Below are positions 4,032-22,192 of a stretch of DNA of 52,459 bases, one piece after another (position 1 is the stretch's first letter; each line of letters starts with the position of its first letter). The notes under the pieces are model-generated. The model saw only the letters and a list, made by a program, of their open reading frames with translations, had not been told where the DNA came from and did not search any database. This DNA comes from a virus (taxonomy: Duplodnaviria > Caudoviricetes): the IMG/VR virus record IMGVR_UViG_3300009155_004654, positions 1 to 52,459 of that record; one strand, given 5' to 3'. Both the position numbers and the translations under genes were made by a program.

Positions 4032-4032
4032 A

Positions 4033-4344: not shown

Positions 4345-4386
4345 TCAACCCTTGACCGCATATGTCCCCAGCGTTAAGCTTCCTAC

Positions 4387-5734: not shown

Positions 5735-5763
5735 CAGGCTAAGCTATAAGCATCGGAGGGAAG

Positions 5764-5970: not shown

Positions 5971-5982
5971 AGATCGGAGGAA

Positions 5983-6717: not shown

Positions 6718-6719
6718 AC

Positions 6720-6941
6720 ATGGAGAATTCAAATATGGTGCTAATGCACGGCGATCTTGTTTTTCAAATCAAGGAACCAAACAAGTTTTATTTTGTTCTA
6801 AATCCTTGTAGACCCGCTGATGGTTTTACGCAGGTTGTTGTCCAAAATGTAGAGGACAGAAACGATTTTCGATATATCAACAAATTTTGGTTTGACGCTG
6901 GCAATTGGGAGCGTTATACTGAACCCACAAAGGAGAATTAA
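6720..6941 (+). CDS. Small KOW/SH3-like early protein
   Basis: HGDLVF motif; start moved to 6720 or later. Confidence 0.55.
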   Translation: MENSNMVLMHGDLVFQIKEPNKFYFVLNPCRPADGFTQVVVQNVEDRNDFRYINKFWFDAGNWERYTEPTKEN

Positions 6942-6942
6942 C

Positions 6943-7149
6943 GTGGCTTTCCGTGGCTTTTTCGATGATGATAACAATAATGATAACAGTAAGAAGGTGC
7001 TTAATTGCCCCATTCATGGTGATTACCCAGCTTCTATGAAGGCTTTTGGGTGTCCCGAATGTGCGAAGGAGCAGGAGGACGAGCAAGAAATTGAAGAAAT
7101 GCTTGACAAGTCCAAGATTGCTCGTTTTAATACTCCAAGGAAGCGGTAA
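6943..7149 (+). CDS. Small Zn-finger protein
   Basis: GTG start after AAGGAG; CPIHG..GCPEC. Confidence 0.65.
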   Translation: MAFRGFFDDDNNNDNSKKVLNCPIHGDYPASMKAFGCPECAKEQEDEQEIEEMLDKSKIARFNTPRKR

Positions 7150-7313
7150 TGTTATATCACGATTTAACTGACAGAGAAATTATCCAAACTCTTGTTGAGG
7201 ATAAAATTCTGCTTGAAGCAAAAGTTAAGCAATTAGAATCCGAGGTGGAGAAACTTAAAAATAAGAGCGACAAGAAAACTATGTCAATCCCACTATTTAG
7301 ATTTGGAGATTGA
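7149..7313 (+). CDS. Small coiled-coil protein (54 aa, not in ORF track)
   Basis: MLYHDLTDREIIQTLVEDKILLEAKVKQLESEVEKLK.. heptad pattern; TAATG coupling. Confidence 0.6.
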   Translation: MLYHDLTDREIIQTLVEDKILLEAKVKQLESEVEKLKNKSDKKTMSIPLFRFGD

Positions 7314-7315
7314 TT

Positions 7316-7564
7316 ATGAGATATCTTATTTTAGCCCCCTTGCTTTTGCTTGCTGGAGATGCTAGAGCAGAGGACGAAGAACCAAAAAAGGTCTATCGCA
7401 AAGAAACAACCATCGATTTTGAAGAACTAGAAATTGAGGGTATTTTAGTTAAACCTCAATCAGCATTAGTCCTTGAAAGGAAAAAGGCAAGTTTTAATCC
7501 GCTTATTAAACTTAGAACGGATTGGAACGATGAAATCGAAAAGAACGTTGACGAAGTGAAATAA
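7316..7564 (+). CDS. cglF: Homolog of myxobacterial adventurous gliding motility protein CglF/GltF
   Basis: Sec signal peptide (..AGDARA) then KKVYRKETTIDFEELEIEGILVKPQ..ERKKASFNPLIKLRTDWNDEIEKNVDEV, matching recalled CglF pattern YxKKTxIDFxDxxIEGELxKP..RKxxxFxxLIxxRxxFxxEL. Confidence 0.8.
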   Translation: MRYLILAPLLLLAGDARAEDEEPKKVYRKETTIDFEELEIEGILVKPQSALVLERKKASFNPLIKLRTDWNDEIEKNVDEVK

Positions 7565-7581
7565 CCCGTTAAGAGGCTTTC

Positions 7582-7776
7582 ATGGACCGCACCCTGTACG
7601 AATTCCAAACGGGCGATATTGTAGCCCATCGCATGAACGAGAATAAAACGGGAGTTGTTCTTGAAGCCAAATATCTAAATCACAAGGGTAGAGAAATTCT
7701 TTATATTTGCTGGTTCGATGAAGGCCCAGCATCTAAAAAGCGTTATCCAGCCGCGCATATTGTAAAAGTATCGTAG
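7582..7776 (+). CDS. Small KOW/SH3-like early protein
   Basis: FQTGDIV..TGVVL..YICWFD. Confidence 0.72.
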   Translation: MDRTLYEFQTGDIVAHRMNENKTGVVLEAKYLNHKGREILYICWFDEGPASKKRYPAAHIVKVS

Positions 7777-7797
7777 ATTTTTATAGGAGAAACTAAA

Positions 7798-7890
7798 ATG
7801 CCCCTAAATGAAGCCTTTGATCCTTTTTTGATCGTAGTATTCCTGGTTTTTTTCTTTGCTATTTCTACTGCTGCGAAACTTCGTCTTTAA
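7798..7890 (+). CDS. 30-aa membrane peptide (not in ORF track)
   Basis: SD AGGAG; MPLNEAFDPFLIVVFLVFFFAISTAAKLRL. Confidence 0.5.
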   Translation: MPLNEAFDPFLIVVFLVFFFAISTAAKLRL

Positions 7891-7941
7891 CCCTTGCGCT
7901 ATCTCTAAGAGGCGTTAATAGGTATTCATCAAGGAGAGAAG

Positions 7942-8562
7942 ATGAAAGGCTATCGTCGCCACCCTCGCTGCTCGTTTTGCTCCGATACGGGCCATAATCG
8001 TCGGAGTTGCGAAAAGCTCAAGACCGTAAAAGATATTGTTGTCGAAAAGTATAAGACCCTTCGCGCAAAGTGGTGGGAATCTTACAAGAATCTTCCTTAT
8101 GGTTATGGAGCTATTTACAAGCATGTTAATGGCTCTTATGCTTATAATGAAGCTGGAGCTTGGACCCGTGCTGAACTAGGTAAGGAGATTATCCATGTTG
8201 TTGTAGGTATCCATCTTCCTACTTATATTAGCGATACAGGCTCTATTTTTACCTCGCCATTTTCTAGGATTGACGCTGGCGAGCATGGTGGTTATTCCGA
8301 TCTTCCTGTGGTTGACGGATATTTCACCAAAAATATCATGGAATCGCTTAAGCAGGGCTATAGTTATCATCCTACAAAGTGCGTTTTTGAGCGTCGTCTA
8401 CTTTCTTTTGGGGCTACCCTTGCCGATACCGTAGACCGCGATAAGCTTAACAAGTGGTTGGAAGCCCAAGACGTTACGGATTCCCATAGGTTTAGAGATT
8501 CTACAAATACCTACGGTCGTATTATAGAATCTTTTTGTATGGATACTGAACTCGTCGGATAA
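7942..8562 (+). CDS. CCHC zinc-knuckle early protein
   Basis: CSFCSDTGHNRRSC = C-x2-C-x4-H-x4-C; own promoter. Confidence 0.75.
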   Translation: MKGYRRHPRCSFCSDTGHNRRSCEKLKTVKDIVVEKYKTLRAKWWESYKNLPYGYGAIYKHVNGSYAYNEAGAWTRAELGKEIIHVVVGIHLPTYISDTGSIFTSPFSRIDAGEHGGYSDLPVVDGYFTKNIMESLKQGYSYHPTKCVFERRLLSFGATLADTVDRDKLNKWLEAQDVTDSHRFRDSTNTYGRIIESFCMDTELVG

Positions 8563-8635
8563 AAGAAACTTGAAATCCTCCTTGACGGGTCTTGTAGGGT
8601 CCGTTAAGGAGTAAATGAAGGAGAGAGGAAAACAA

Positions 8636-9364
8636 ATGACTTGTAGATTCTGTGGAAGCCGTGGACATAATCGTAATGGCTGCCCCGATGTTGCGGCTCA
8701 TGCTGCCAGCGGTAAGGCAAAAATGGAAGAAGGACAAGATCGCTATTCTCTTGGTTGGAAGGAGCGTTTCGCGGTTTCTATCGTAGATAACAAGGCTACC
8801 CGTTCTGCCCGCGTGTCTACTACTCCTCGCAAGTGTTCCTATTGTTCCGTAGCGGGTCATACGCGAGCAAAGTGTGAAATTCTCACGAATGACCGTGCAG
8901 CCGTTTTTACTCACGAAAAGACGTTCCGCACTAACTTTGCGAATTGGGTTCTTACGAGCGGAATTGGTGTTGGTTCCATCGTTACGAGAAAGAATTGGGA
9001 TGGGACCGAATGGTCTGTTCTTATCACGAAGGTTAACTATGATGGTATCAACATCATGAACCCTAACGGACAGAGCCCTCTTCGCGGTCAGTATCTTAAT
9101 CGACAGGGTTGGGAGAATGACGTAGCAAGCTTGAATATTGCCCCGTCGCGGTATTTTGGATTTGAAATCTCCGCTCCCGCTCCCGCTATTCCTGTCCCCG
9201 ATAGCTTCCTTAGCGACGAGGAAATTACGAAGACGGTTAGTAGGTGGTTCGATGAAAAGTCAAGCCGTCGAACGCGCTGGCATGATGTTTCTGTCGGGAT
9301 CTTCCACGAAAATCGTCCCGATCTTGTGGAATTGACGGAGAAGGCGAAGGTTTACGCAGTTTAG
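8636..9364 (+). CDS. Double CCHC zinc-knuckle early protein
   Basis: CRFCGSRGHNRNGC and CSYCSVAGHTRAKC; start 8636 by SD (8615 alternative). Confidence 0.78.
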   Translation: MTCRFCGSRGHNRNGCPDVAAHAASGKAKMEEGQDRYSLGWKERFAVSIVDNKATRSARVSTTPRKCSYCSVAGHTRAKCEILTNDRAAVFTHEKTFRTNFANWVLTSGIGVGSIVTRKNWDGTEWSVLITKVNYDGINIMNPNGQSPLRGQYLNRQGWENDVASLNIAPSRYFGFEISAPAPAIPVPDSFLSDEEITKTVSRWFDEKSSRRTRWHDVSVGIFHENRPDLVELTEKAKVYAV

Positions 9365-9428
9365 GAAACTATTTAATCCTCCTTGACTTTCGGGTCTTGG
9401 AGGATTAACTATTAGTGGGAGGCAAAAA

Positions 9429-9644
9429 ATGAAGTTTGATGTTGAAGAAGCGATTGAAGAAATCCTTGTTGAAGGTTTTAGCGAAGGAGATCTTTTGCGA
9501 GCGGTCCTTGCAGTTCTTCCAAAGAGTGAAATTGAGGAAATTCTAAATTCAGCCGAAGACCACCTTTTTGCCGAAGCAGAAGAAGAAAGCGAGGAAGATT
9601 GGGATAGCGACGAAGATGAAATTGACGAGGAAGAGGAATTCTAA
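9429..9644 (+). CDS. Small highly acidic protein
   Basis: EEESEEDWDSDEDEIDEEEEF tail; own promoter and SD GGAGG. Confidence 0.7.
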   Translation: MKFDVEEAIEEILVEGFSEGDLLRAVLAVLPKSEIEEILNSAEDHLFAEAEEESEEDWDSDEDEIDEEEEF

Positions 9645-9835
9645 TGTTCAAAGTCGGAGATCTTGTCGAGGTTAAATATAGGGAAAATAAACCTGGAATT
9701 ATAACTTCCATTTTTGAGGAGACGGACAGAAAAGATAAGTTTAAACATAAAAGAACTTTTTATGTCGTCAAACACCTTGAAAGTGAATCGACAGGAGAAT
9801 GGCTAGAAACTTCTTTACGACCCTTGAAAAGTTGA
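9644..9835 (+). CDS. Small KOW/SH3-like early protein
   Basis: MFKVGDLVEV..PGIIT..FYVVK. Confidence 0.75.
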   Translation: MFKVGDLVEVKYRENKPGIITSIFEETDRKDKFKHKRTFYVVKHLESESTGEWLETSLRPLKS

Positions 9836-9839
9836 GAAT

Positions 9840-9896
9840 ATCGCCCCTCATACTCGGCAAATTTGGAAAATAAAAGAATAAGGATGAGGGGCGATT
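9840..9896. repeat. Inverted repeat / hairpin upstream of EndoVII gene
   Basis: ATCGCCCCTCAT..ATGAGGGGCGAT 12-bp perfect stem followed by TTT. Confidence 0.65.
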
Positions 9897-9935
9897 TTCT
9901 ATTTATATAACTACTTATTCATAGGAGGAAACTTC

Positions 9936-10505
9936 ATGGAAGATCAAGTAGTTGATGAAAAGAAAACAAAAAAGAGAGAAGCAAATAAAAGATATATACA
10001 AAAGAATAAAGAAAAGTTAAACGAGAAGAAGAAACAATATCGTTTAGAAAATAAAGAAAAAATTAAACAATATTATTTAGAGAATAAAGAAAAATTAAAC
10101 GAACATATGAAACAATATCGTTTAGTGAATAAAGAAAAAATAGAAGAGTATAATAAGCAATATCGTTTAGAAAATAAAGAAAACGATAAACAATATCGTT
10201 TAAATAATAAAGAAAGATATAGAGAAAGTAAACTTAAAAGAAAGTATAACATAACCCTTGACGACTACAATAAGATGTTGTTAGAACAAGACGGCAAGTG
10301 CTGGACCTGTTCTATCAAGATTGAAGATACAAAAAAGAAATATCTTTGTGTAGATCATAATCACTTGACAGGACAGGTAAGAGGGTTATTGTGTGATCCC
10401 TGTAACGTCGCTCTTGGTCTTCTTAAAGAAAGTCAAGAGATAATCGCAAATCTTTCAAAATATTTATATGAAAAAGATCCTTGCGTCCCCGAAGAAGGGC
10501 GTTAA
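9936..10505 (+). CDS. Endonuclease VII-family homing endonuclease with N-terminal helical repeats
   Basis: Repeated KQYRLENKE units; KRKYNITLDDY..QDGKCWTC..VDHNHLTGQVRGLLCDPCN. Confidence 0.9.
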   Translation: MEDQVVDEKKTKKREANKRYIQKNKEKLNEKKKQYRLENKEKIKQYYLENKEKLNEHMKQYRLVNKEKIEEYNKQYRLENKENDKQYRLNNKERYRESKLKRKYNITLDDYNKMLLEQDGKCWTCSIKIEDTKKKYLCVDHNHLTGQVRGLLCDPCNVALGLLKESQEIIANLSKYLYEKDPCVPEEGR

Positions 10506-10524
10506 GAGAGAGGAGGAGGAAAGA

Positions 10525-10845
10525 ATGGCTACCCCTCGTCTTTGCGGAAATTGTGGTGAACCTAATCACAATAAGCGCACCTGTAAAAACCCTCCGAAGA
10601 CAAGGGAGGTCACCCCTGTTCCTGTTGCCCCTGCTATCTCCTACGCTCCTAAGAATGTTGAGCGAATTAAGCAGGTTGAAGCCCAGGAATTTGAGGGTGG
10701 CCTCCCGATAGTCGATATGGCCCCTTGCCTTCTTCGCCTAAACGGTTATACTCAAATCTGTTCGGGATCGTTCCGTATGACGGTCCCCGACGATACTACC
10801 TTTGACCAAATCTCTAACTATGTCGCTTGGAGGCGATATGTTTAA
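10525..10845 (+). CDS. CCHC zinc-knuckle early protein
   Basis: CGNCGEPNHNKRTC; start moved to 10525 after SD GGAGG and promoter 10481. Confidence 0.75.
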   Translation: MATPRLCGNCGEPNHNKRTCKNPPKTREVTPVPVAPAISYAPKNVERIKQVEAQEFEGGLPIVDMAPCLLRLNGYTQICSGSFRMTVPDDTTFDQISNYVAWRRYV

Positions 10846-11008
10846 AATCGCTGATATCGTTCAGTTTACCGCATTTGGACAAAGTGACAATTTTGGAATT
10901 GTCGAAGAAGTATCTAAAAATGATAGAATTATTACGGTGAAATGGTTTAATAAGGGATTTTCTAACAAATATCGTTCATGTGACCTCACACTTATTAAGA
11001 GGGTATAA
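10838..11008 (+). CDS. Small KOW/SH3-like early protein
   Basis: MFKIADIV..FGIVE..VKWFN. Confidence 0.72.
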   Translation: MFKIADIVQFTAFGQSDNFGIVEEVSKNDRIITVKWFNKGFSNKYRSCDLTLIKRV

Positions 11009-11170
11009 ATGATTAAAATCGGTGATCTCGTCCGTCACAAGTATAACATTCAACCCGATGTTTTTGGTATCGTTATCGGTATTGACGGTCACCTTTATAG
11101 AGTTAAGTGGTTTGACGGAGTAGATTCAAAGGAATATCTTCACAACGTCCTTGAGGTTCAAAGTGGCTAA
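11009..11170 (+). CDS. Small KOW/SH3-like early protein (53 aa, not in ORF track)
   Basis: MIKIGDLVRHKYNIQPDVFGIVIGIDGHLYRVKWFDG.. Confidence 0.78.
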   Translation: MIKIGDLVRHKYNIQPDVFGIVIGIDGHLYRVKWFDGVDSKEYLHNVLEVQSG

Positions 11171-11411
11171 ACTCCCCGATTATATCGACAAAACCGATAA
11201 GAAAGCGGTAGCAGAATATTTTATAAAGCAACGCGAAATGGCCGAATATGAGAAATATTATCTTGAAGCAATAAATACCCTTGAAAAGCCATATCTTGAC
11301 CTTTATGGAGATTTCAACCGTTATAATACTGAAATTGGGGATCATCTTATCTCGCAAGGCTGGAAGGTTGAGAATATAGCCCTTTTAACCTACCGAATTT
11401 GGAAACCTTGA
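11163..11411 (+). CDS. Hypothetical protein
   Basis: GTG start after GAGG. Confidence 0.55.
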   Translation: MAKLPDYIDKTDKKAVAEYFIKQREMAEYEKYYLEAINTLEKPYLDLYGDFNRYNTEIGDHLISQGWKVENIALLTYRIWKP

Positions 11412-11467
11412 AAGAACCCTTGACGCTTTAGAACAACAGGTTAAGTAGAAACCCCCAAGGAGCACAA

Positions 11468-11623
11468 ATGGACGAACTTTTCATGGAAATTCTAAACCCT
11501 CAGCCCGATCCTGTTTCTGCTGATTGCCTCTTGACGACGGAGGAAGCAGATAGTATGATGAAGGAGGAGGACGTTATGTTAATCTTCGCAGCTTCTATCT
11601 ACCCTCATATTTTATGGAATTGA
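11468..11623 (+). CDS. Small acidic protein (51 aa, not in ORF track)
   Basis: Promoter 11420, SD AAGGAG, MDELFMEILNPQPD.. Confidence 0.55.
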   Translation: MDELFMEILNPQPDPVSADCLLTTEEADSMMKEEDVMLIFAASIYPHILWN

Positions 11624-11691
11624 AAACTTCATTATTTCAATCTATTCGGCAATTCTTCTAATTCATTCAAATAACTTTCTTTGGAGGTCAA

Positions 11692-11826
11692 ATGTCGGCA
11701 ATCGAACGGTATTATTCTACTCTCTCCCCCGCTGGTCCCTATTGCGCTGAGGACGAGGAAGATGGGGGCACGCTTAGCGACGAAGAGATCGCTGCGCTCT
11801 ACGAAATCGCTATGCAGGACTTCTAA
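11692..11826 (+). CDS. Small acidic protein (44 aa, not in ORF track)
   Basis: SD GGAGG; MSAIERYY..EDEEDGGTLSDEEIAALYEIAMQDF. Confidence 0.6.
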   Translation: MSAIERYYSTLSPAGPYCAEDEEDGGTLSDEEIAALYEIAMQDF

Positions 11827-11925
11827 AATGAAGCTGGCACCTAGCTCAACTGGTCCTCCGTCTTTTTCTTTGGATGGACCTTGCACCCTTTCAGCAACCC
11901 GTTAAGAGGATGAAGAGGAGGAAAG

Positions 11926-12180
11926 ATGAAGGTTTACGAGGTTTCGTGGGGAATTCGATACGAGGGATCGAGCGTTGTTGCGATCTACGCTACTGCTGAC
12001 CGCGCTATGATTGGTGCTTGGGAGGAAGCAGAAAGGCTGAATAAGATCTACGAGTCCACAAGCGGAAATCCTTCCAAAGAGACGGAGTGGACAGTTTCTA
12101 CCGAAAAAAAGTGTCTTTTTTACATCGCTAATGATCTTGACGATTATATCTTCGTCAAAGAACGCGAGGTAATCGAATAA
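11926..12180 (+). CDS. Hypothetical early protein
   Basis: Own promoter 11881 and SD GAGGAGG. Confidence 0.7.
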   Translation: MKVYEVSWGIRYEGSSVVAIYATADRAMIGAWEEAERLNKIYESTSGNPSKETEWTVSTEKKCLFYIANDLDDYIFVKEREVIE

Positions 12181-12236
12181 AAGTTCCTTGACGATCCCCC
12201 TAAACCCGTTAAGAGGATGAAGAGGAGAAAAGAGAA

Positions 12237-12701
12237 ATGAACTTCAAAATCGGTGATATCGTCGTTTCTCGCATGATCGGAGCGACGGGAATTGTGAGCG
12301 AAATCGAAAATCGTCCTTTCGACAACGATCCCGAAAAGATGCCAAGGTATTTCTACACCGTCAAGTGGTTTAATTATGATGTTGAATATACCCGTAATCT
12401 TGACGGACAATCTCTTAAACCTTTTGAAACGGAAAAGCCTGTGAATAATCCTACGAAAAAGATGTGGACGCGCCAGCAGATTGAGGCTATGCTTGAACAG
12501 GACGCAGCGGTCAATCAAGCCGTTGTCTCCCTCGCGAGGAACGTTGACCTTCTTCCCGAAAAGACCCGTTCCTACGTGATTAATTGGGGAAATTGGGTAG
12601 CAAGCGGCAAGTCCCTTAGCGGCAAGCACCTTGTAAACGCCCGTCGAACCTGTATTTTCAACTCCAAGACCCTTACCGCAATCGCAAATAAGGAGGTTTG
12701 A
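12237..12701 (+). CDS. KOW/SH3-like domain fused to helical domain
   Basis: MNFKIGDIV..YTVKWFN followed by a WTRQQIE..LSGKHL domain. Confidence 0.7.
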   Translation: MNFKIGDIVVSRMIGATGIVSEIENRPFDNDPEKMPRYFYTVKWFNYDVEYTRNLDGQSLKPFETEKPVNNPTKKMWTRQQIEAMLEQDAAVNQAVVSLARNVDLLPEKTRSYVINWGNWVASGKSLSGKHLVNARRTCIFNSKTLTAIANKEV

Positions 12702-12832
12702 TGTATACCGAAGAGCAGAAGAAGAAGGATATTGAATTTGTGGATAAGTTCACGGTTGTCCTTAGCGTTTTTGCTGGTTCCTACATGGTCTTCTACTTTA
12801 TCCCTATGGTTATCAGCAAGCTTTTCTTCTAA
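12701..12832 (+). CDS. Small membrane protein (43 aa, not in ORF track)
   Basis: SD AAGGAGG; MYTEEQKKKDIEFVDKFTVVLSVFAGSYMVFYFIPMVISKLFF. Confidence 0.6.
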   Translation: MYTEEQKKKDIEFVDKFTVVLSVFAGSYMVFYFIPMVISKLFF

Positions 12833-12888
12833 AAGTTCCTTGACCATCTACGAGAAACGGTTAATCTCTAAAACGAAGGAGAAAGAAA

Positions 12889-13071
12889 ATGACGGTCGCT
12901 CAGCTTCGTGCGCTTCTTGCTAATCTTCCCGATGATATGCGGATCGCTCTTTCCTACGAGGGATCGGTAGCGACGTTTATGTCTGGAGATATCTGCTTTG
13001 AAGATGATAAGGGCAGCGAGATCAACGAGAGCGAGGCTACGTCAAGCGATTTTCTCGTTTTTGTTGAATAA
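12889..13071 (+). CDS. Small phage protein (MTVxxLxxxL family)
   Basis: MTVAQLRALLANLPDDMRI, a common phage N-terminus; own promoter. Confidence 0.7.
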   Translation: MTVAQLRALLANLPDDMRIALSYEGSVATFMSGDICFEDDKGSEINESEATSSDFLVFVE

Positions 13072-13366
13072 AAGAAAGAGGAAAGAAAATGGTTGACGGT
13101 CTACGAGGTAATGGTTAGTTGAAAAGGGCTGGAGAGAAAACCAGCGAGAACGAAAAAAGAAAAAAGACCCTTGACGAAGTTTGAGGGTCGGTTAAGGAGA
13201 GAAGGTCAACGCGAGGAAAGAAAGCTCCTCGCCACATAAAAGAGGTCAAGGCGGAAAGTTGAAAAAAACTTCCTTGACGCTCCTCCCAAAGCGGTTAAGA
13301 AGAAAGGGCTGGAGGGAAATGGTTCCCGAAGGCTCGCTGATAAACTCCCGACTACGGACGTTCAAA

Positions 13367-13768
13367 ATGGCTCGCAAGAACACCCCCGCTACCTACGCTT
13401 GTGGCAACTGCGGTACTCACGGTCACAACAAGCGCACCTGCCCCGAACTTGGCCTTGTCGCGAAGGTCAAGCCTGTCAAGAAGCCCCGTGCGAAGAAGGT
13501 TGTTGAGGAGACGCCCGCTATCGCTCCTCTCGCGACTGAGGAGCAGCTTGAGGCTCTCCGCGCTCTTGCTGAGGAGATCGCCGCTGAGGTTGAGACGGCG
13601 TGCGAAGAGGAGAGCGAGCGTGAGCCTACCGACGAGGAGCTTACGGAGATTGAGGCTGGCGAGGTTGACGCGGCGTTTGAGGCTGAGATTCCCGCTGGTG
13701 AGGTGGTTGAGGTCAGCGACGAGGAAGAGGCCGCGTTCATGAACGAGTTTGCCGCGCTCTTCGCCTAA
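13367..13768 (+). CDS. CCHC zinc-knuckle protein with basic linker and acidic tail
   Basis: Start moved to 13367; CGNCGTHGHNKRTC, KVKPVKKPRAKK, then Glu-rich tail ending FMNEFAALFA; strongly biased codons. Confidence 0.8.
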   Translation: MARKNTPATYACGNCGTHGHNKRTCPELGLVAKVKPVKKPRAKKVVEETPAIAPLATEEQLEALRALAEEIAAEVETACEEESEREPTDEELTEIEAGEVDAAFEAEIPAGEVVEVSDEEEAAFMNEFAALFA

Positions 13769-13785
13769 AAGCTGAGGGAGATTAA

Positions 13786-13827
13786 GAGGTTGGAGGCTCA
13801 AAAGGCTTCCAGCCTCTTTCTCTTTTA
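13786..13827 (+). terminator. Probable terminator
   Basis: GAGGTTGGAGGC..GCTTCCAGCCTC stem followed by TTTCTCTTTT. Confidence 0.6.
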
Positions 13828-13973
13828 TGCGGGGGGAAGAAATCCAGGTTCTTCCTCCTCTTTGAGAAATCTTCAAAAGCTCCTTGACGGTCTTTGAGGA
13901 GCGGTTAAGTAGAAAGGGCTGGAGGGGAATGGTCCTCGCCAGCAAACGTCCTTCTTCAAAAAGGGTATTTCAA

Positions 13974-14210
13974 ATGGCTTTCAACGCCGACGAGCTTGCT
14001 GCTCACATCTTTTCCGACGAAAACCCCGTAAACATCGTGGGGCGTTATCGTCTTGCTATGAAGAGCCTTCTTATTGACGCGAGGACGCTTAGCCCCGAAA
14101 ATGTTGAGCTTCAAGCTATCGTTTTTGAACGTCTCCGCGCTGCGCTTGATAGCGAGGAATACAAGGCGTATGAGAAGGCTTTGCTTGCCTCTTGGGCGAA
14201 CAAGGGCTAG
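13974..14210 (+). CDS. Hypothetical early protein
   Basis: Start moved to 13974 (MAFNAD); own promoter 13884. Confidence 0.7.
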   Translation: MAFNADELAAHIFSDENPVNIVGRYRLAMKSLLIDARTLSPENVELQAIVFERLRAALDSEEYKAYEKALLASWANKG

Positions 14211-14443
14211 GCATTAAGAGGTTCAAGGAAATCTTCAAAAGACCCTTGCGCCTCTTGATGGAGCGGTTAAGTAGAAAGGGTGAGGGTCGGAACCCCTCCA
14301 GCTTCCCGAAAACGAGGCAGGGACGAGAAAGAAGAAACTTTCAAGAAAGTCCTTGCCGCTTCTCCAAGACCCGTTAATAGAAAGGGGCTGAGGGAATCCT
14401 CCCGACGCTTCTTCAACAACCAGCAATCAAGGTAATCCACCAA

Positions 14444-15529
14444 ATGGCTATCGATTTCAAGACCTTCCTTTCGGTCGCTCCCTACGTCCTCAACGTCCGC
14501 AAGCCTGTCCTTATTCGTGGTCGCCACGGTATCGGCAAGAGCGAGGTTGTCTACCAAATCGCCCGCGAGCTTGGCCTTCCTGTGGTTGAACGCCGCGTTT
14601 CGCAGATGACTGAGGGTGACCTTCTTGGTATGCCTTCCGCTATCGGCACTGAGATCGGCGGCAAGCGTGCGACGACTTGGGACGCTCCCGATTGGCTCCT
14701 CACCGCTTGTGCTCAGCCTGTCGTGATGTTCCTTGACGAAGTGGACCGCGGAACTACTGAGGTTCGACAGGGCATCTTCGAGCTTACCGACTCCCGCAAG
14801 ATCGCTGGCGTTACGCTCCACCCCGATACGCTGATTATCGCTGCTGTGAACGGTGGAAATCACGGGTCGCAATACCAAGTTGGCGAGATGGACCCTGCTG
14901 AGCTTGACCGCTGGACTGCTTTTGACCTTGAGCCTACCGTCGAAGATTGGCTTACTTGGGCGAAGGACAATACTCACGGGCTTGTTTGGGACTTTATCAA
15001 CCAAAACCGCAAGGATCTTGAGCACAACGGGGATTTTGAGCCCAACAAGAAGTACCCGTCCCGACGCTCTTGGAAGCGGCTGAATGACTGTCTCGTCGCT
15101 GGCAAGCTCACGACGGACGCTGCTAAGAAGGCTGGCATCATCTACAACCTCGCTTGCGGATTTGTCGGCTTTGAAGCTGCGGTTAAGCTGAAGGCTCACG
15201 TTGAGAACTACAAGGAGCAGGTTACCGTCGAAGATATCCTTGACGACGGAAAGGTGAGCAAGACCAAGGACTTCGCTATCACCGACCACGCTGCCCTTGC
15301 GGAGAAGATCACTCAGTCGGGTCGTCTCAACGAGGCTCTTACGACGGTCGCTCTCAAGAACCTTGCTTCTTATTGGCTTACTCTGCCCTCTGAGGTTGCC
15401 ATGAAGCTCTACACCGATATCGGTCGCAGCTTCGTCAAGAACGCCGTTGCCCTGCACGCTACGGAGGTCAACGGAGTCAAGGTTGGTGAGCAGCTTGCTA
15501 AGGTGCTTGGTGCTGGTCGCTCTAAGTAG
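14444..15529 (+). CDS. MoxR-family AAA+ ATPase
   Basis: Walker A GRHGIGKS, Walker B MFLDEVDR, AAVN sensor, MDPAELDR Arg finger, PSRRSW. Confidence 0.92.
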   Translation: MAIDFKTFLSVAPYVLNVRKPVLIRGRHGIGKSEVVYQIARELGLPVVERRVSQMTEGDLLGMPSAIGTEIGGKRATTWDAPDWLLTACAQPVVMFLDEVDRGTTEVRQGIFELTDSRKIAGVTLHPDTLIIAAVNGGNHGSQYQVGEMDPAELDRWTAFDLEPTVEDWLTWAKDNTHGLVWDFINQNRKDLEHNGDFEPNKKYPSRRSWKRLNDCLVAGKLTTDAAKKAGIIYNLACGFVGFEAAVKLKAHVENYKEQVTVEDILDDGKVSKTKDFAITDHAALAEKITQSGRLNEALTTVALKNLASYWLTLPSEVAMKLYTDIGRSFVKNAVALHATEVNGVKVGEQLAKVLGAGRSK

Positions 15530-15545
15530 TCAGTAAGGCAGCATA

Positions 15546-15588
15546 AACCCTCGCTTTTCCTTCGGGAGAGGCGGGGGTTTTCTGCTTT
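15546..15588 (+). terminator. Rho-independent terminator (cUUCGg loop)
   Basis: AAACCCTCGCTTTTCC-TTCG-GGAGAGGCGGGGGTTT then T run. Confidence 0.85.
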
Positions 15589-15721
15589 TAATCCGCAAAT
15601 TTCAAGGGCATTTCAGTTCTTGAAATCCGAAAGCTGAAAGCCAGGAGGAGGGGCGACGAAGCCAGGACGATGCCCCTTCCCGAAGGTGAGGGACGGTCCC
15701 GAAGATGCCCCTAGCCCGCAA

Positions 15722-15798
15722 TAGGAAGCGATATGGGACGCGAGGAGGGGCAGGGGTAGGGTGAGGGTAGGGGTCGCAGGGAGGGTCGCCCATATCGC
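15722..15798. repeat. G-rich-loop hairpin element, copy 1
   Basis: Stem GCGATATGGG/CCCATATCGC enclosing GGAGGGGCAGGGGTAGGGTGAGGGTAG. Confidence 0.75.
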
Positions 15799-16009
15799 AA
15801 TAGGTTTAGCAAGTAGTTTTGGACCTCCGCGCAACCTCTTTTGAAAGAAAAAGTTGAAATAAAGTCCTTGACAAAATAAATATTCTTTTTGCTCTTGACT
15901 TTTAGAAGATCCAAAGTGGCGTTACTTGTTCGCAGGTAACGCAAGATCGGAACATCCAGCCCCTAAGCCTACTCCACGGGTCACCCTCAAAGACCTCCGC
16001 TAAGGGCTC

Positions 16010-16086
16010 TAGGAACGCTTATGGGAGCGATGGAGGGTAAGGGGTAGGGTAAGGTAGCCCCCCACGGTCCACGAGGCTCATAAGCG
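16010..16086. repeat. G-rich-loop hairpin element, copy 2
   Basis: Stem CGCTTATGGG/CTCATAAGCG enclosing GGAGGGTAAGGGGTAGGGTAAGGTAG; compensatory changes versus copy 1. Confidence 0.75.
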
Positions 16087-16207
16087 AAATGGGAGCGTCG
16101 AGAACTTTTGGGGAGTCGTCAAGGGCAAAGAAGAAGAAAGTTGAAGAAAGTTTCTCCTTGACGATGGAGGTGGACCCGTTAAGAGAAGAACGAAGGAGAA
16201 AGAAGAA

Positions 16208-16384
16208 ATGAACAAGCTCGTCATGATCTATCTGATCGCGGTTTCTCACCTTTCCAACATCGTGCCCCTTGCCATTCCCGAAGGCGAGGTTATTGGAGGT
16301 GGGGCTGAGATCGAAGCGGTTTACGTTCCTGCTGGCTACGCTGGTCCTATCGTCGCAGCCCCTTTCAGCGAAAAGGTTTTCTAA
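16208..16384 (+). CDS. Small hydrophobic protein (58 aa, not in ORF track)
   Basis: Promoter 16158, SD AAGGAG; MNKLVMIYLIAVSHLS.. Confidence 0.6.
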   Translation: MNKLVMIYLIAVSHLSNIVPLAIPEGEVIGGGAEIEAVYVPAGYAGPIVAAPFSEKVF

Positions 16385-16435
16385 AAGACCTTGACGCTTC
16401 TCCTAAACGCATTAAGAGGTTCAAGAGGAGGGAAG

Positions 16436-16630
16436 ATGAAGGTTTCGTTCAACGTCCTGTATGCCCAAATTGAGGCAAAGAGGAAGGCTGACCCGCGTTC
16501 CAGCCCTAGCCGCGATAATCATTCCTTCAAGGACATTCTTGCCTTGATGAAGGAGATCGAAAAGGATATCGAAAGCGCGGGCTGGAGCGTTCCCGAATAC
16601 TACGATCAAGTCAAGACCATGCCTCTCTGA
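16436..16630 (+). CDS. Hypothetical early protein
   Basis: Start moved to 16436; promoter 16391, SD GAGGAGG. Confidence 0.68.
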   Translation: MKVSFNVLYAQIEAKRKADPRSSPSRDNHSFKDILALMKEIEKDIESAGWSVPEYYDQVKTMPL

Positions 16631-16693
16631 AAAAAGAGAGGGGGGGCCTTGCGCTTATACACCAACCCGTTAAGAGAAGAAGACGGAGGCAAG

Positions 16694-17287
16694 ATGGAAG
16701 CGGTAGAGAGGATCGCAGCAATCAAGGCTAACCCTGCCTTTGAGGGTCTTTCGCAGAGTCACAAGGATTTCGTTGATTCTGTCGAAAAGTGGGTTAAAAC
16801 GCGCCCTCTTTCGATGGGTCAAGAGGCATGGATCGAGCGGATCGAAAAAGTTCTCAAACCTGTTGACAATAGCTGGTTTGACCTTAACGACGAGGAATTC
16901 CAGAAGAAGCGTGCTTATGCGATCCAGCACTACAAGGCAACGGGCTACTACCTTCATCAAGTTTCCCGTATGGAAGCCGATCCTGCCTACATGCCCGAAA
17001 AAGAACTTTGGGATAGAATGTGGGGAAACAAGTATATCAACGCCGCTTTTAAGCGATGGACGGCTGGAGCCCGTTTCAAGATCGGTGATATGGTAGTCAA
17101 CAAATATTATCCTAGTTACTACGGAAAGATCGCGGTTATTGAAAATGTTGTTTGGAATAGTTCGGGCTGGACATATGGCGCACTTCCGCTTAATCCCGGT
17201 GAACATTATATTAATCAAAAGATGCAGCAGATTGACGAAAAGCACTTTCTACCTGCTTCTAATCGCAATCTCAAAAACCGCATCTAA
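16694..17287 (+). CDS. Early protein with C-terminal KOW/SH3-like domain
   Basis: Start moved to 16694; internal RFKIGDMVV motif. Confidence 0.72.
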   Translation: MEAVERIAAIKANPAFEGLSQSHKDFVDSVEKWVKTRPLSMGQEAWIERIEKVLKPVDNSWFDLNDEEFQKKRAYAIQHYKATGYYLHQVSRMEADPAYMPEKELWDRMWGNKYINAAFKRWTAGARFKIGDMVVNKYYPSYYGKIAVIENVVWNSSGWTYGALPLNPGEHYINQKMQQIDEKHFLPASNRNLKNRI

Positions 17288-17373
17288 TCATTAGCGAGCC
17301 GTCAAGGTCTTTCTCTAAAAAAGATTGGCCTTGACGGTTCTTCGTAGCGGGTTAACTTCAAGGAGGAGGGAAG

Positions 17374-17541
17374 ATGGAAGAGAACTTCAAGAACGAAGAC
17401 CACACGGCTTTCTGTGATATGGTGCTAGGCTCCGATAACGGTTTTAGCGAGGGAGATCGTCAAGTTCTTTTTCTCCACGCTCTTATCGAAAAGTATAGCG
17501 TCCCCCTTGATAATCCCCGCGAAAACGTTACTATCTTCTAG
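17374..17541 (+). CDS. Small protein (55 aa, not in ORF track)
   Basis: Promoter 17331, SD AAGGAGG. Confidence 0.6.
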   Translation: MEENFKNEDHTAFCDMVLGSDNGFSEGDRQVLFLHALIEKYSVPLDNPRENVTIF

Positions 17542-17551
17542 GAGGTTCTAA

Positions 17552-17761
17552 ATGGCTAAGGCAAAGAAGGCTAGGCGTGTCTATCCTCTAATTAATGAAA
17601 TTGTTGAGCTTATCCCGCAAAAGCGCAGGGCAAAGGTTACTTTTCTTGACCCTCGCATTATCAAGGTCCGCTGGATGGATAACGAAGCGGTTGAGGAATT
17701 CAGCACAAGTTATTTCGTTGATACATATTGGACTATTGCCGTGAGGAATTACGATGTATAA
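17552..17761 (+). CDS. Small SH3-like protein
   Basis: SD AGGAGG; IKVRWMD. Confidence 0.6.
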   Translation: MAKAKKARRVYPLINEIVELIPQKRRAKVTFLDPRIIKVRWMDNEAVEEFSTSYFVDTYWTIAVRNYDV

Positions 17762-17966
17762 GAAGCCTGCTCCCCCGAAGCTTGGAACCCTTGTTGTTGC
17801 TCAAAATATTGATGGGACTATGTGTAATGGATATGTAAGCGGATTTATGGGCGATATTGCTAAGGGTAGATATTGTATTGAAATTACGTTCCATGAAGGA
17901 AAGCAAAATCATCGTTTCTTCTCAGTTGGTGAGGAAGGCAAACTATGGCGCAAGCTCCCCTCGTAA
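17754..17966 (+). CDS. Small KOW/SH3-like protein
   Basis: PKLGTLV..GYVS variant. Confidence 0.55.
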   Translation: MYKKPAPPKLGTLVVAQNIDGTMCNGYVSGFMGDIAKGRYCIEITFHEGKQNHRFFSVGEEGKLWRKLPS

Positions 17967-18169
17967 ATATTGGAGATTTGGTATGGGTTAAAATCCAGCT
18001 TGGAAGGGATCATTATACCTGCTTGACTGCTTTTATCTTTGCGGTTAACTATTGGGATGGGCAAAACGTATCATCTTATTATGCTGAATATTTAGAACAA
18101 AATAATCCTCAAACAACTGCCCTTTATGGGTTTGACTTCAACGATATATGGGGGAAGCTTGAAACCTAA
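17945..18169 (+). CDS. Small KOW/SH3-like protein
   Basis: VNIGDLVWV. Confidence 0.65.
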   Translation: MAQAPLVNIGDLVWVKIQLGRDHYTCLTAFIFAVNYWDGQNVSSYYAEYLEQNNPQTTALYGFDFNDIWGKLET

Positions 18170-18371
18170 TATCAACGTCGGAGATATGGTCGAGATTAAA
18201 TATAGGGTTGATAGCAAGACCCATACTTATCGATATGCTTATGTTACCGAAATTGATGTTCAAGTTGGTAGCATTATGGCAGCAGATGGTTTTGTCGCTA
18301 AATACCTTGACATAGATGAAATTTGCTACCTCATTTATTCCCATAATGAAAGCTGGTGGAAAAAGCTATGA
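18159..18371 (+). CDS. Small KOW/SH3-like protein
   Basis: INVGDMVEI; start uncertain. Confidence 0.62.
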   Translation: MKPNINVGDMVEIKYRVDSKTHTYRYAYVTEIDVQVGSIMAADGFVAKYLDIDEICYLIYSHNESWWKKL

Positions 18372-18395
18372 AAATTGACTTTGATAAGGTGGACC

Positions 18396-18599
18396 ATGCT
18401 TAAACTTGGTGATATGGTTGACTTCTACGGTAAAGCTGGTGTATCCCCAAGAGGCACACAAGGTATTTATGTGATAATTGAAGAGCATAAAGGTGCCAGC
18501 ACAACTCAATATATTGGCGTGCTAATGTTTGAAGACAAAAAAGAAAGGCTATGGATATTTCCTTCTCAAGAGGGTATTACATGGAAGAAAATAACATGA
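18396..18599 (+). CDS. Small KOW/SH3-like protein
   Basis: MLKLGDMVD; start moved to 18396. Confidence 0.62.
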   Translation: MLKLGDMVDFYGKAGVSPRGTQGIYVIIEEHKGASTTQYIGVLMFEDKKERLWIFPSQEGITWKKIT

Positions 18600-18802
18600 G
18601 ATTTAAAGTTGGGGATTTGGTCCAAAGTGTTAGACACGATCCCGCTGGCAGATTTAGGCTTGCGATTATCATGGGCACAAGCGAGAGCGAGCACAGAAAG
18701 AATTTCCTTTATTATCACCTCTTCGTTGTTGATTGGGACGAGCACCAGCGTTATAGTGCTTACACCGCAGAACGATGCTTTGATTTGATTTCCGCCCCAT
18801 AA
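18596..18802 (+). CDS. Small KOW/SH3-like protein
   Basis: MRFKVGDLVQ; start moved to 18596. Confidence 0.7.
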   Translation: MRFKVGDLVQSVRHDPAGRFRLAIIMGTSESEHRKNFLYYHLFVVDWDEHQRYSAYTAERCFDLISAP

Positions 18803-18825
18803 TTTTTCCATTCCAAAGGATTCCC

Positions 18826-19089
18826 ATGCCAAAAACAATCCCAAATAACGAGCAATATAAGCTCAAAGATGGAAGAGTTATAAAGCTTGGGGATATTGTT
18901 AAATACAAATGGGGTTATTTTCCAACGGGATATGTGTTTAAAATTGAAAAGAAATGGGGACGTTGGAGGTCGCATGTTCAGTTATTTAATTACGAGCAAC
19001 CATACGATATAATTGAAACAAAACTTTGCGACTTTGATCATTTCTTTTCCTTTCTAACCGAAGAGGAATTAAAAAATGAAGATAGGTGA
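18826..19089 (+). CDS. Small KOW/SH3-like protein
   Basis: IKLGDIVKY..TGYVFKI. Confidence 0.65.
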   Translation: MPKTIPNNEQYKLKDGRVIKLGDIVKYKWGYFPTGYVFKIEKKWGRWRSHVQLFNYEQPYDIIETKLCDFDHFFSFLTEEELKNEDR

Positions 19090-19279
19090 TTTGGTCTGTA
19101 GGCGATCTAATCAAAGGGATCAAATAGGATATATCTATAAGTTAACAAATCATCACAATCCATTTAGAAATAGGGGAGAGCCAGCAAATTATATTATGTA
19201 TCATGTTTGTTGGATTGAAACAGAATGTAAAAACTATTGTTACGAGGAAGGGGATATAGAGATTGTTTCGGAGGCATAA
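19076..19279 (+). CDS. Small KOW/SH3-like protein
   Basis: MKIGDLVC..IGYI..YHVCW. Confidence 0.72.
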   Translation: MKIGDLVCRRSNQRDQIGYIYKLTNHHNPFRNRGEPANYIMYHVCWIETECKNYCYEEGDIEIVSEA

Positions 19280-19317
19280 ATGATGGGAGAAAGTAAATTA
19301 ATGGGAAGTAGAGCAAT

Positions 19318-19833
19318 ATGATAGAATACCCCGCAGAATACCCCGTCACATATATAATTCTTTCGCTTTCCTTCTTTCTTCTTATTATTCCTCTTGCTAT
19401 TCAATATGCGATAGGACAATACTCAAAATATCTTAAATATCTTTGGAATAAGGACAACGCTTGTAAAGCAGGACAAACAATCATTTGTGAATATAAATTT
19501 TCAATATCCCATGACTATAACATTATATCGAAAGGTGTAGTATTACAAGATTTTGTTTGGGAGCAAAGACATGAATATCCCCCTTTCTATATAGAAATTG
19601 GCCGTCCCGCAAAGAATCTTAAGGGAGAAGAGCTTTTCGATTACCAATTACTTTACACCAATCAAATTATAAGCATTCAAAAAGTGATTGATGTGGAATA
19701 TTCTAACGATATTATGAAGAGATATAAACAAAAGAAGATTATTAGACCGAAAGAAAAAGAAGATTATTTGAAAGTTTATTCAGACATATTATTTAAAAAT
19801 TACTTTCAGAGTAAATTTCCAAGGCATAAATGA
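19318..19833 (+). CDS. Membrane-anchored hypothetical protein
   Basis: N-terminal TM helix. Confidence 0.6.
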   Translation: MIEYPAEYPVTYIILSLSFFLLIIPLAIQYAIGQYSKYLKYLWNKDNACKAGQTIICEYKFSISHDYNIISKGVVLQDFVWEQRHEYPPFYIEIGRPAKNLKGEELFDYQLLYTNQIISIQKVIDVEYSNDIMKRYKQKKIIRPKEKEDYLKVYSDILFKNYFQSKFPRHK

Positions 19834-20030
19834 ATAATCAATTTAATGTTGGAGATATCATTATTCCTATTGAGGGACAAAAAGGAAATACTTGGATTGT
19901 TCTAAACATAATACATCCAGCATTAGATTATATGTCTTTCTACCTTCTTCAAAATTTAGAAGATAGTGATGAAGTTGAAGCATTATATTGTAATCACATA
20001 GAGAAGTATTATGAGAGAGCAAATGAATAA
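19830..20030 (+). CDS. Small KOW/SH3-like protein
   Basis: QFNVGDII. Confidence 0.65.
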   Translation: MNNQFNVGDIIIPIEGQKGNTWIVLNIIHPALDYMSFYLLQNLEDSDEVEALYCNHIEKYYERANE

Positions 20031-20208
20031 GTTCAGCATAGGGGATATCGTAAAGCATCCTAATAATGGTTCTTACCATATTGTTATTAAAGATACCTTA
20101 ACCCATACAGGGCTTTCCTATTATACTTTATTGAATTGCCAAAACAATACCGAAACCACCCTATACCGTTATGATATTATAAAGTTTGTAATGGTATCGA
20201 GCGCATAG
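20023..20208 (+). CDS. Small KOW/SH3-like protein
   Basis: MNKFSIGDIVK; start moved to 20023. Confidence 0.68.
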   Translation: MNKFSIGDIVKHPNNGSYHIVIKDTLTHTGLSYYTLLNCQNNTETTLYRYDIIKFVMVSSA

Positions 20209-20369
20209 GGATTGTTGTGGTGTGTTGTGCTAATTAAAAGAAAGCTTGACGAACGCTAAGCTTCCATTTTTATTACAAGCCAATAACGTGTAGTTAAAGC
20301 TGTAAATTTATGGGGATAATTGGGCATTTAATAGGCCCTAATAAGTAGTTTGTCAAATGAAAAAAAGCA

Positions 20370-20560
20370 TGTATTATTAAAAATATTTTGTATCAACACA
20401 AGTATCAAAAAAATGATAAATGATACTATGTATTAATGTATTGTGATAAATGATACAAGTATTAATAAAACGTTAACATGACACTAATACATTTGGTTAA
20501 CATGACACTTCAAGTTTATTGATACAAGTATTATGATAAACGATATATCAATACATTAGA
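20370..20560. repeat. AT-rich non-coding block with short direct repeats (origin-like)
   Basis: TGATAAATGATAC x2, TGATACAAGTATTA x2, GTTAACATGACACT x2; IHF consensus TATCAATACATTA at 20546-20558. Confidence 0.65.
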
Positions 20561-20827
20561 CCTCTTGACCATTAAGCGTCGTGAGGCTTTTTGTGTTTCT
20601 AAATAAAAGTCAAGCCCTATCATCAAAAGAAAGTTTGTCAAGAGGCATAGAAAGAAAAGATTCCTCTTGCACCTCCTCTAAGAGCGGTTAAGGTATTGAT
20701 GTGGCGGGGAGAGAAGAAGAAACTCTCTCAGCCCTCTTTGAATCCCCGAATACTTGTGGTGGCCCCTTGACGCTTCTAATGGTGGAAGCTATAGAGGGAA
20801 AGTCGATGAACCCACTACGGAGGCAAC

Positions 20828-22151: not shown

Positions 22152-22192
22152 TATCAAGGGGTTAGGCCCCCCTCCCCCCCTCCCCTCCCCCC
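22152..22192. other. IHF consensus site followed by C6TC7TC4TC6 tract (G-quadruplex-prone on - strand)
   Basis: TATCAAGGGGTTA matches WATCAANNNNTTR; poly-C tracts 22167-22192. Confidence 0.6.

Follow-up and report, generated by a model that had tools for sequence, protein, structure and literature searches.

The window, i.e. the whole stretch of DNA analysed (52,459 bp), is an entire IMG/VR virus record with a completeness estimate of 23%. Its genes include those for a cobS-like AAA ATPase, a DUF2201/VWA protein, PhoH, an endonuclease VII-like protein and glycosyltransferases, and two tRNA genes are located at 16-170. The phage was taken as T4-like because of this gene set, including the ATPase, which has many relatives on contigs of 150-203 kb, and the carrier is regarded as an uncultured freshwater T4-like dsDNA myovirus. 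The stretch or a part of it is present in 20 listed sequencing runs from 15 studies, with labels that mostly read freshwater metagenome. The G+C content is 0.47-0.54 at 12-18 kb versus about 0.24-0.43 over most of the window.

Five sequences were compared, namely the window, the locus L003 in the complete 184-kb genome G001, and the metagenome contigs L085, L086 and L087, which were found through an ORF of 58 aa; L003 is the only diverged relative. The locus is a non-coding gap of 678 nt between the stop of the cobS-like gene (15529) and this ORF (at 16208), and the long ORFs around the two hairpins described below are all on the + strand. The gap and its borders comprise the following features.

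14444-15529, + strand: cobS-like AAA ATPase gene upstream of the gap (PHROG 1297 ATPase, E = 2e-47; Pfam AAA_5)
15545-15580, + strand: intrinsic terminator 3' of cobS, a 16-pair stem with a T-run, conserved in L003 and L086
15643-15788, + strand: hypervariable segment V1, with about 42-58% identity to L003 and a 31-nt gap; the 5' arm and the loop of hairpin copy 1 fall within it
15919-15942, + strand: hairpin of 10 bp with a TTCG loop, between both units, partly conserved in L086, L087 and L003 (by eye)
16208-16384, + strand: 58-aa ORF, the first gene past the gap, with an amino acid identity of 83% to L003 and of 91-100% to L085-L087

The cobS-like ATPase has 261 relatives in viral contigs, and its L003 homologue shows an amino acid identity of 89%; for the 58-aa ORF, Pfam and PHROG gave no family. 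The median distance from cobS to the next ORF in 65 other cobS loci is 9 nt, and the gap is therefore specific to the hairpin-bearing clade. Lineage-specific oddities within the gap are a 21-nt tandem duplication and, in L003, a 34-nt insertion; direct repeats of 9 nt adjoin both hairpins. Protein coding of the hairpin region was rejected, as stops are present in every + frame, and the - strand ORF at 16019-16249 was rejected as coding because of a 2-nt indel within it in L003 and in the DNA run X4. An 18-nt repeat (D7), which would place a fragment of ORF 16208 in V1, was not significant in blastn-short and was likewise dismissed.

The first-pass annotation of this DNA had described two repeats 288 nt apart, each with a 10-bp stem, and both the coordinates and the pairing were confirmed. 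The hairpins measure 71 nt each (copy 1 at 15728-15798, copy 2 at 16016-16086), with a 10-bp stem, a 51-nt loop and a start-to-start distance of 288 nt; this anatomy is established, and its parts are listed here.

15722-15727, + strand: copy 1 flank TAGGAA, containing the SD-like GGAA, which is invariant in 8/8 copies
15728-15737, + strand: copy 1 5' arm GCGATATGGG, a derived state; L003 has CGCTTATGAG at the same place
15738-15788, + strand: G-rich copy 1 loop of 51 nt, in which two canonical G-quadruplex (G4) motifs overlap (15747-15785); 28/50 identical to L003
15789-15798, + strand: copy 1 3' arm CCCATATCGC, the start of conserved block B; 10/10 identical in L003, L086 and L087
16010-16015, + strand: copy 2 flank TAGGAA, from the alignment of the copies
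16016-16025, + strand: copy 2 5' arm CGCTTATGGG, identical in 4/5 relatives; L085 has G to A at 16023
16026-16076, + strand: copy 2 interior, 51 nt, with predicted pairing of a G-rich 5' part and a C-rich 3' part and inner helices of 2+4 and 3+4 bp; 44/51 identical to L003
16077-16086, + strand: copy 2 3' arm CTCATAAGCG, invariant in 5/5 sequences

All ten pairs of the copy 1 stem are Watson-Crick pairs, and the copy 2 stem consists of nine Watson-Crick pairs and one G.T. Copy 1 and copy 2 have their outer four pairs in opposite orientation (G:C to C:G, C:G to G:C, G:C to C:G and A:T to T:A). Outside the stem, the two copies resemble each other only over the 5' 45 nt (73%); their loops are unrelated in the 3' half, where 5/22 positions are identical. 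The repeated unit nevertheless extends past the hairpins and reaches, about 68 nt downstream of each, a promoter-like word. In 8/8 copies, including the unpaired copy 1 of L003, GGAA, TATG and GGGTAGGG do not vary. The 3' arms are directly followed by AATAGG and AAATGG, respectively, and neither hairpin qualifies as an intrinsic terminator, the stems having no immediate T-run; a terminator scan of 15000-17500 flagged only 15545-15580.

The first-pass annotation had looked to a covariance model for related elements. Built from the 8 copies, the model (R1) recovered two hits each in the window, with filters switched off, and in the complete genome G001, but none in 80 further loci, which were 79 other cobS loci and L002, the sole viral match to the G-rich word and an unrelated chance match. 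On 15 bacterial/archaeal loci from the pattern scan R1 gave no credible hit (the best with 15.1 bits, E = 0.33), and three exact-word scans each returned only the contig of L003. A dispersed repeat or MITE was rejected, since R1 gives two copies per genome and only in the hairpin-bearing clade, to which the element is restricted. A cmscan of 14000-18000 against Rfam 15, its ssDNA-type motifs such as PAGEV included, with E up to 10 gave 7 weak hits, none of them on 15722-15798 or 16010-16086, and blastn against 50,697 phage and 72,556 plasmid records found no similar DNA.

Perfect 10-bp stems with a loop of 30-70 nt occur at 14 positions in the window versus a mean of 5.2 in 30 block shuffles, and a lone stem of this kind in the window is not rare. 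Two stems in one register of two related copies are rare: across 8 sequences (7 distinct) 91.4% of the cells in the stem register pair and four pairs are changed on both sides, the stem pairing of this alignment was matched by 5 of 500 shuffles, and 23-63% paired when the partner was slid by 1-3 columns. The folding energy of the + strand RNA was unremarkable (z = -0.48 for copy 1, z = -1.67 for copy 2). The exchange of the outer four pairs had been put forward as compensatory and as direct evidence of a selected structure. The flips themselves are real, but the four double changes all belong to one lineage (copy 1 of the window, which equals copy 1 of L086) and are not kept in copy 1 of L003. 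This orthologue combines a copy-2-type 5' arm with a copy-1-type 3' arm, pairs at 5/10 positions, and breaks the four flipped pairs and a fifth.

The sequence history of copy 1 differs between its two sides. Regarding the 5' arm and loop, 38/66 positions are identical to L003, no better than neutral, whereas block B shows 72/82 identical positions at 15799-15880 and, together with the 3' arm (15789-15880), an identity of about 89%. In DNA run X4 one contig joins 15642 to 15789, the copy 1 5' arm and loop being absent, and a second contig has the copy 1 hairpin with two changes in the loop and upstream region. Copy 1 of L003 has no stable fold (z = +0.47, empty centroid); its 5' arm is 9/10 like copy 2, and the 5' arm of the window is 5/10 like that of L003. 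Because the 3' arm is common to all lineages and the L003 5' arm is copy-2-like, the window's copy 1 5' arm is considered the derived state, a polarity drawn from one outgroup (copy 2). It is the exact reverse complement of the conserved 3' arm, and the perfect stem was probably made in one step, by a template switch that copied the conserved 3' block in reverse complement; such an origin being probable, the copy 1 stem is not strong evidence of selection. As presented in the part of Monttinen & Loytynoja 2022 (PMC8794818) drawn on here, one template-switch mutation can give multi-base compensatory changes, for which selection is not needed; similarly, adjacent changes in the present 5' arm (positions 1-4 and 9) turn a 5/10 quasi-palindrome into a 10/10 one. 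The present case differs in that its direction comes from one outgroup and in that gene conversion, by which the L003 5' half would have been overwritten from copy 2, is an equally short alternative of one event. Either way, the four 'compensatory' changes are a single event between two paralogues with one orthologue contradicting, the claimed covariation proves little because copy 1 varies between strains, and its reading as direct evidence of selection is not upheld.

Copy 1 is best read as a partial duplicate, made from the 5' 45 nt of copy 2, that is decaying and polymorphic between strains, and judged from the strains compared it is dispensable. A pairing of loop 1 with the C-rich segment 15950-16009, as suggested by the global fold, was rejected, since the duplex energy is no better than that with shuffled partners (window -41.8 versus a shuffled mean of -46.5; L003 -31.7 versus -33.5) and cross-genome pairs are equally good.

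Copy 2 is 69/77 identical (90%) between the window and L003. The neutral benchmark for the same two sequences, the fourfold-degenerate sites of cobS, gives 108/172 (63%; binomial p = 1e-7), and the non-coding neighbours 15953-15990 and 16087-16120 are 62% identical. This conservation is established and, as far as such comparisons tell, places copy 2 clearly under purifying selection. The consensus fold of the five sequences (RNAalifold) has 27 pairs, made up of the closing stem and inner helices that join the G-runs with a C-run, and in a fold of the whole 627-nt gap the copy 2 hairpin persists as a local structure. A strand bias is likewise established: three G.U/U.G pairs are invariant, L003 shows two changes from G-C to G-U, and on the - strand these positions are A.C mismatches, so that the pairing fits the + strand only. 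Copy 2 of L003 folds with -28.5 kcal/mol (z = -2.09) on the + strand versus -16.2 (z = -1.31) on the - strand. Variable columns number 4/46 among paired and 8/25 among unpaired positions (Fisher p = 0.02), the structure having been predicted from the same sequences. The selected structure of the first-pass annotation is thus retained for copy 2, with 90% versus 63% neutral identity and its + strand G.U pairs, and given up for copy 1, whose 5' arm and loop are neutral.

Within copy 2, the covariation term (+0.28) gives no net support, the one double change lies in a weak outer helix that is broken by other sequences, and the G to A change of L085 at 16023 breaks a closing-stem pair without compensation. 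The loop is conserved as well (44/51), and some words are invariant even in the unpaired L003 copy 1; these facts therefore point to a sequence-specific reading (protein site, micro-ORF) as much as to a helix. An SD-sponge was rejected, since copy 2 of L003 is without GGAGG.

Of the word CCTTGAC, the + strand has 23 occurrences and the - strand 4, almost all of them within 2.9-20.8 kb. GTTAAG follows 15-16 nt past it, close before an ATG, at 9 of the 23 + strand sites, and a one-mismatch variant at 3 more. Typically such a site is preceded by an A-rich stretch resembling AAAGTTGAA and followed, at 12-30 nt, by an SD and an ATG, and CCTTGAC-N15-GTTAAG precedes many small ORFs at 2.9-17.3 kb. 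From the motif alone, CCTTGAC is regarded as the putative early-promoter word of the phage; a generic sigma-70 scan of 15000-17500 found no promoter, and the -10-like word of unit 2 differs from TATAAT. The gap contains two such units.

15866-15899, + strand: two -35-like words (CCTTGAC at 15866, TTGAC at 15895), a degenerate promoter unit lacking a gene, with neither GTTAAG nor an ORF
16156-16183, + strand: full early-promoter-like motif (CCTTGAC-N15-GTTAAG); the ATG at 16208 follows after 25 nt

In L003 both -35-like words of the first unit are conserved, except for the 34-nt insertion between them. The distance from the end of the 3' arm to CCTTGAC is 67 nt for copy 1 (15798 to 15866) and 69 nt for copy 2 (16086 to 16156), and because each hairpin precedes a CCTTGAC-type word, the downstream likeness of the 288-nt units is partly promoter consensus. 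Transcription across copy 2 is not assured, since both upstream words are without GTTAAG. The contigs of run X4 diverge from the window at or near the promoter words, with loose ends at 15848, 15894 and 16137. The metatranscriptome run X19 yielded one 157-nt contig, at 15395-15537 inside cobS, which has no bearing on the hairpins either way; run X20 is probably DNA.

On the sequence comparisons, copy 2 is probably a conserved cis element at the RNA level. The explanation preferred here, tentatively and at somewhat less than even odds, makes it an RNA hairpin that acts in cis within the leader of early genes, with copy 1 as its decaying duplicate. The + strand RNA of this leader would fold into an imperfect hairpin of some 27 bp, with the -35-like words (15866 and 15895) on its upstream side and the complete promoter (16156) on its downstream side. 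Most likely this hairpin would serve in cis for processing, for stability or as an insulator, and so part upstream transcription from the small-gene cluster. Of the candidates originally named, a structured ncRNA thus survives as an RNA candidate, a cis element being likelier than a free ncRNA. RNase III hairpins are known to process the early polycistronic transcripts of phages, e.g. at the R-sites of T7 downstream of tandem early promoters. Copy 2 resembles such a site in layout, as a predicted irregular hairpin of about 27 bp with internal loops, placed in a non-coding leader after tandem promoter-like words and ahead of the first small early gene.

The conserved words of the hairpins also frame a short reading frame in each copy, with GGAA, six nucleotides, an ATG plus seven codons, and a TAG inside GGGTAGGG.

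15733-15759, + strand: candidate 8-codon micro-ORF of copy 1, with its ATG in the 5' arm and its TAG in the invariant GGGTAGGG
16021-16047, + strand: candidate 8-codon micro-ORF of copy 2 (MGAMEGKG, stop), with the start lost in L085 (ATA)

In attenuators of the cat/erm type, a short ORF with an SD lies in a hairpin, and the opposite strand of that hairpin conceals the site where translation of the regulated gene begins. A leader micro-ORF of the present kind could act similarly, its ATG being hidden in the stem and a ribosome opening the 5' strand, which would free the C-rich 3' strand and alter downstream events; this is considered improbable. In its favour, the frame is open in 8/8 copies with an ATG in 7/8, the best-conserved words are the SD-like word, start and stop, 3/5 variable in-frame sites among the copy 2 variants are synonymous third positions (by eye), and an ATG at 16089, 2 nt past the copy 2 3' arm, repeats the first 9 nt of the micro-ORF. 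An open frame of 8 codons is, however, cheap, since stops are rare in G-rich sequence, the counts are too small for any test, and the start in L085 is ATA. The peptides (MGREEGQG, MSPEEHKG, MGAMEGKG, MGAMEGEG and MGAMKGKG) are not conserved between the copy-1 orthologues, in which 4/7 codons change the amino acid. The ORF 16089-16211, which starts at the ATG past the copy 2 stem, overlaps the promoter motif and keeps neither frame nor length in L003, so that there is no clear regulated gene. The more specific proposal that copy 2 is a translation-sensing switch, with ribosome traffic on the 8-codon leader setting the pairing of the 3' strand and thereby processing or read-through into the small-gene cluster, is a long shot, slightly less probable still. 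If true, T4-like phages would have a leader-peptide attenuator of a type that has not been described for them, and copy 1 would be a second, degenerating sensor.

Two further readings dispense with an RNA fold. It is unlikely, though worth serious weight, that the stems have no function, the gap being debris of cassette duplication, deletion and recombination (PeSL-like shuffling, PeSL being the promoter-early stem-loop) with inverted repeats as mutational by-products, and copy 2 being conserved only as young or as hitch-hiking with the promoter. The gap is clade-specific by the 9-nt median of the 65 other loci, it carries the lineage-specific tandem duplication, direct repeats and L003 insertion noted above, and the X4 contigs part from the window at or beside promoter words; PeSL-mediated shuffling is documented in T4-type phages in the parts consulted of PMC2839356 and PMC4122927. 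The 90% identity of copy 2 against 63% at fourfold sites and 62% in the flanks is hard to explain without constraint, however, and its paired columns are less variable than the unpaired ones. Decidedly unlikely, too, is a DNA-level element, in which the conserved words (GGAA, TATG, GGGTAGGG and C.CATA) and the inverted arms would bind a protein that controls the promoters about 68 nt downstream, the pairing of the arms reflecting the two-fold symmetry of binding sites and not a folded strand. The invariance of words in 8/8 copies, the L003 copy 1 with its broken outer stem included, the like distances of both hairpins to CCTTGAC and the copy 2 loop, nearly as conserved as its stem, suit this reading. 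Yet 51 nt between the arms is a wide spacing for the symmetric site of a dimer, the G.T pairs that are conserved and the changes from G-C to G-T suit one strand only, the other 21 CCTTGAC sites of the + strand are without a hairpin copy (R1 having 2 hits in the window), and no candidate regulator was found, the adjoining small ORFs being without a Pfam or PHROG family.

The first-pass annotation had further suggested single-strand signals for primosome assembly or priming, a pause in DNA injection, and G-quadruplex potential of the loops. Phages of the T4 type have a primosome of their own, which is loaded at forks and D-loops; they are not known to use sequence-specific ssi hairpins for this. 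A role as a ssDNA signal of these kinds, or as a G-quadruplex/R-loop replication origin, is very improbable for the present hairpins. They share with ssi signals a length of about 70 nt and strand-specific pairing, and a G-rich non-template strand downstream of promoter-like words could in principle favour an R-loop; copy 1 has the canonical G4 motif, and the 12-18 kb island has 2 motifs versus 0.1 in shuffles. The quadruplex potential is confined to that copy, however: the canonical motif (four runs of G3+, loops of at most 7 nt) is found in 2/8 copies, which are one distinct sequence, and is missing in copy 1 of L003, which has 2 G3+ runs, and in 5/5 copy-2 sequences, in which the G-runs are predicted to pair with the C-run. 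Moreover, the G4-bearing copy is the one that appears dispensable, and the cumulative GC skew climbs steadily through the hairpins without a turn. A literature search found no paper combining G-quadruplex, T4-like and intergenic. The ssi/primosome and injection-pause proposals are without support, given no match in Rfam or among the phage and 72,556 plasmid records and a large T4-like dsDNA myovirus as the carrier.

Among described systems the locus is most like the PeSL cassettes of T4-type phages (Arbiol et al. 2010, PMC2839356; Comeau et al. 2014, PMC4122927), as these appear in the parts of the two papers used for this comparison. There the stem-loops are short, are placed within the promoter, overlap it or closely precede it, and are found again at many promoters; the promoter is a sigma-70-like early one, A/T-rich on its upstream side and immediately ahead of the SD and start codon of a small ORF. 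Common to both are a T4-like myovirus whose hyperplastic early region is crowded with small ORFs, a putative promoter word that is repeated before each ORF and is A-rich on its upstream side, and a stem-loop upstream of the promoter (copy 2 with G-runs followed by a C-run); a gene-less unit is also present, and relatives differ by replacement or indels exactly at the units (V1, the 34-nt insertion of L003 and the X4 joint). By contrast, the hairpin here is 71 nt long, lies 67-69 nt before the -35 word, has no T-run, and occurs only twice per genome versus 23 promoter words. As both the position at the promoter and the recurrence with it fail, the hairpin itself is not a PeSL stem-loop in the sense of those sources; by analogy it may work like an RNA structure between cassettes.

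The practical value is modest, as the element is limited to one small clade and its role is putative. For genome scans the locus is a caution that a 'compensatory' block between paralogous hairpins can be one mutational event, and that covariation between paralogues should be checked against orthologues before it is read as selection. If copy 2 is a cis-acting RNA structure, as preferred here, it would mark how early transcription units are punctuated in abundant uncultured freshwater T4-like phages.

Each of the two hairpins downstream of the cobS ATPase gene (copy 1, 15728-15798; copy 2, 16016-16086) is accompanied by a 9-nt direct repeat, one copy of which overlaps an arm and the other of which lies immediately outside the stem, after AA:

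15717-15725 and 15796-15804, copy 1 direct repeat, 9 nt, CGCAATAGG
16021-16029 and 16089-16097, copy 2 direct repeat, 9 nt, ATGGGAGCG

The two 9-nt repeats are possibly footprints of one local mutational process shared by both hairpins; neither is present in L003, the diverged relative in a complete 184-kb genome. A 21-nt tandem duplication at 15638-15679 is missing in L086, a metagenome contig of a relative. Directly past the cobS terminator, an 8-bp inverted repeat (15599-15626, ATTTCAAG / CTTGAAAT, spacer of 12 nt) is kept in L086 and is found with one change in L003. A further hairpin (15919-15942, 10 bp, TTCG loop) lies 3' of the incomplete promoter words (-35-like words at 15866 and 15895, without GTTAAG); the four sequences spanning the whole hairpin (the window, L003, L086 and L087, another metagenome contig of a relative) share an unchanged 3' arm and differ in the 5' arm.

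An early-promoter-like motif is repeated in the window, consisting of an A-rich AAAGTTGAA-like stretch followed by CCTTGAC, 15-16 nt, GTTAAG, and then a Shine-Dalgarno sequence with ATG. The word CCTTGAC occurs 23 times on the + strand and four times on the - strand, and the -10-like word shows no resemblance to TATAAT.

2893-20771, + strand, 23 early-promoter-like motif sites (CCTTGAC word), e.g. 12186, 13272, 16156 and 16389

A 40-codon ORF (16089-16211) starts 2 nt past copy 2, and its terminal ATGA overlaps the start of the 58-aa ORF at 16208. It overlaps the promoter motif, continues in a different frame in L003, and is probably not a gene.

At the left end of the window, tRNA genes were recorded:

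16-170, tRNA-Glu(ttc) and tRNA-Asn(gtt) genes

A near-pure C tract of 26 nt on the + strand (22167-22192; a G4 motif on the - strand) lies in the gap that follows the DUF2201 gene. Positions 12000-18000 stand out as an island with a G+C content of 47-54%, compared with about 24-43% for the genome, and the matching stretch is likewise G+C-rich in L003 and L086. Since other cobS loci average 49% G+C, this block may be derived from a G+C-richer T4-like phage. Contigs of X4, a freshwater DNA sequencing run, diverge from the window at or next to promoter words (15848, 15894, 16137 and 16365), which suggests that coexisting strains are distinguished by cassette-level replacement.
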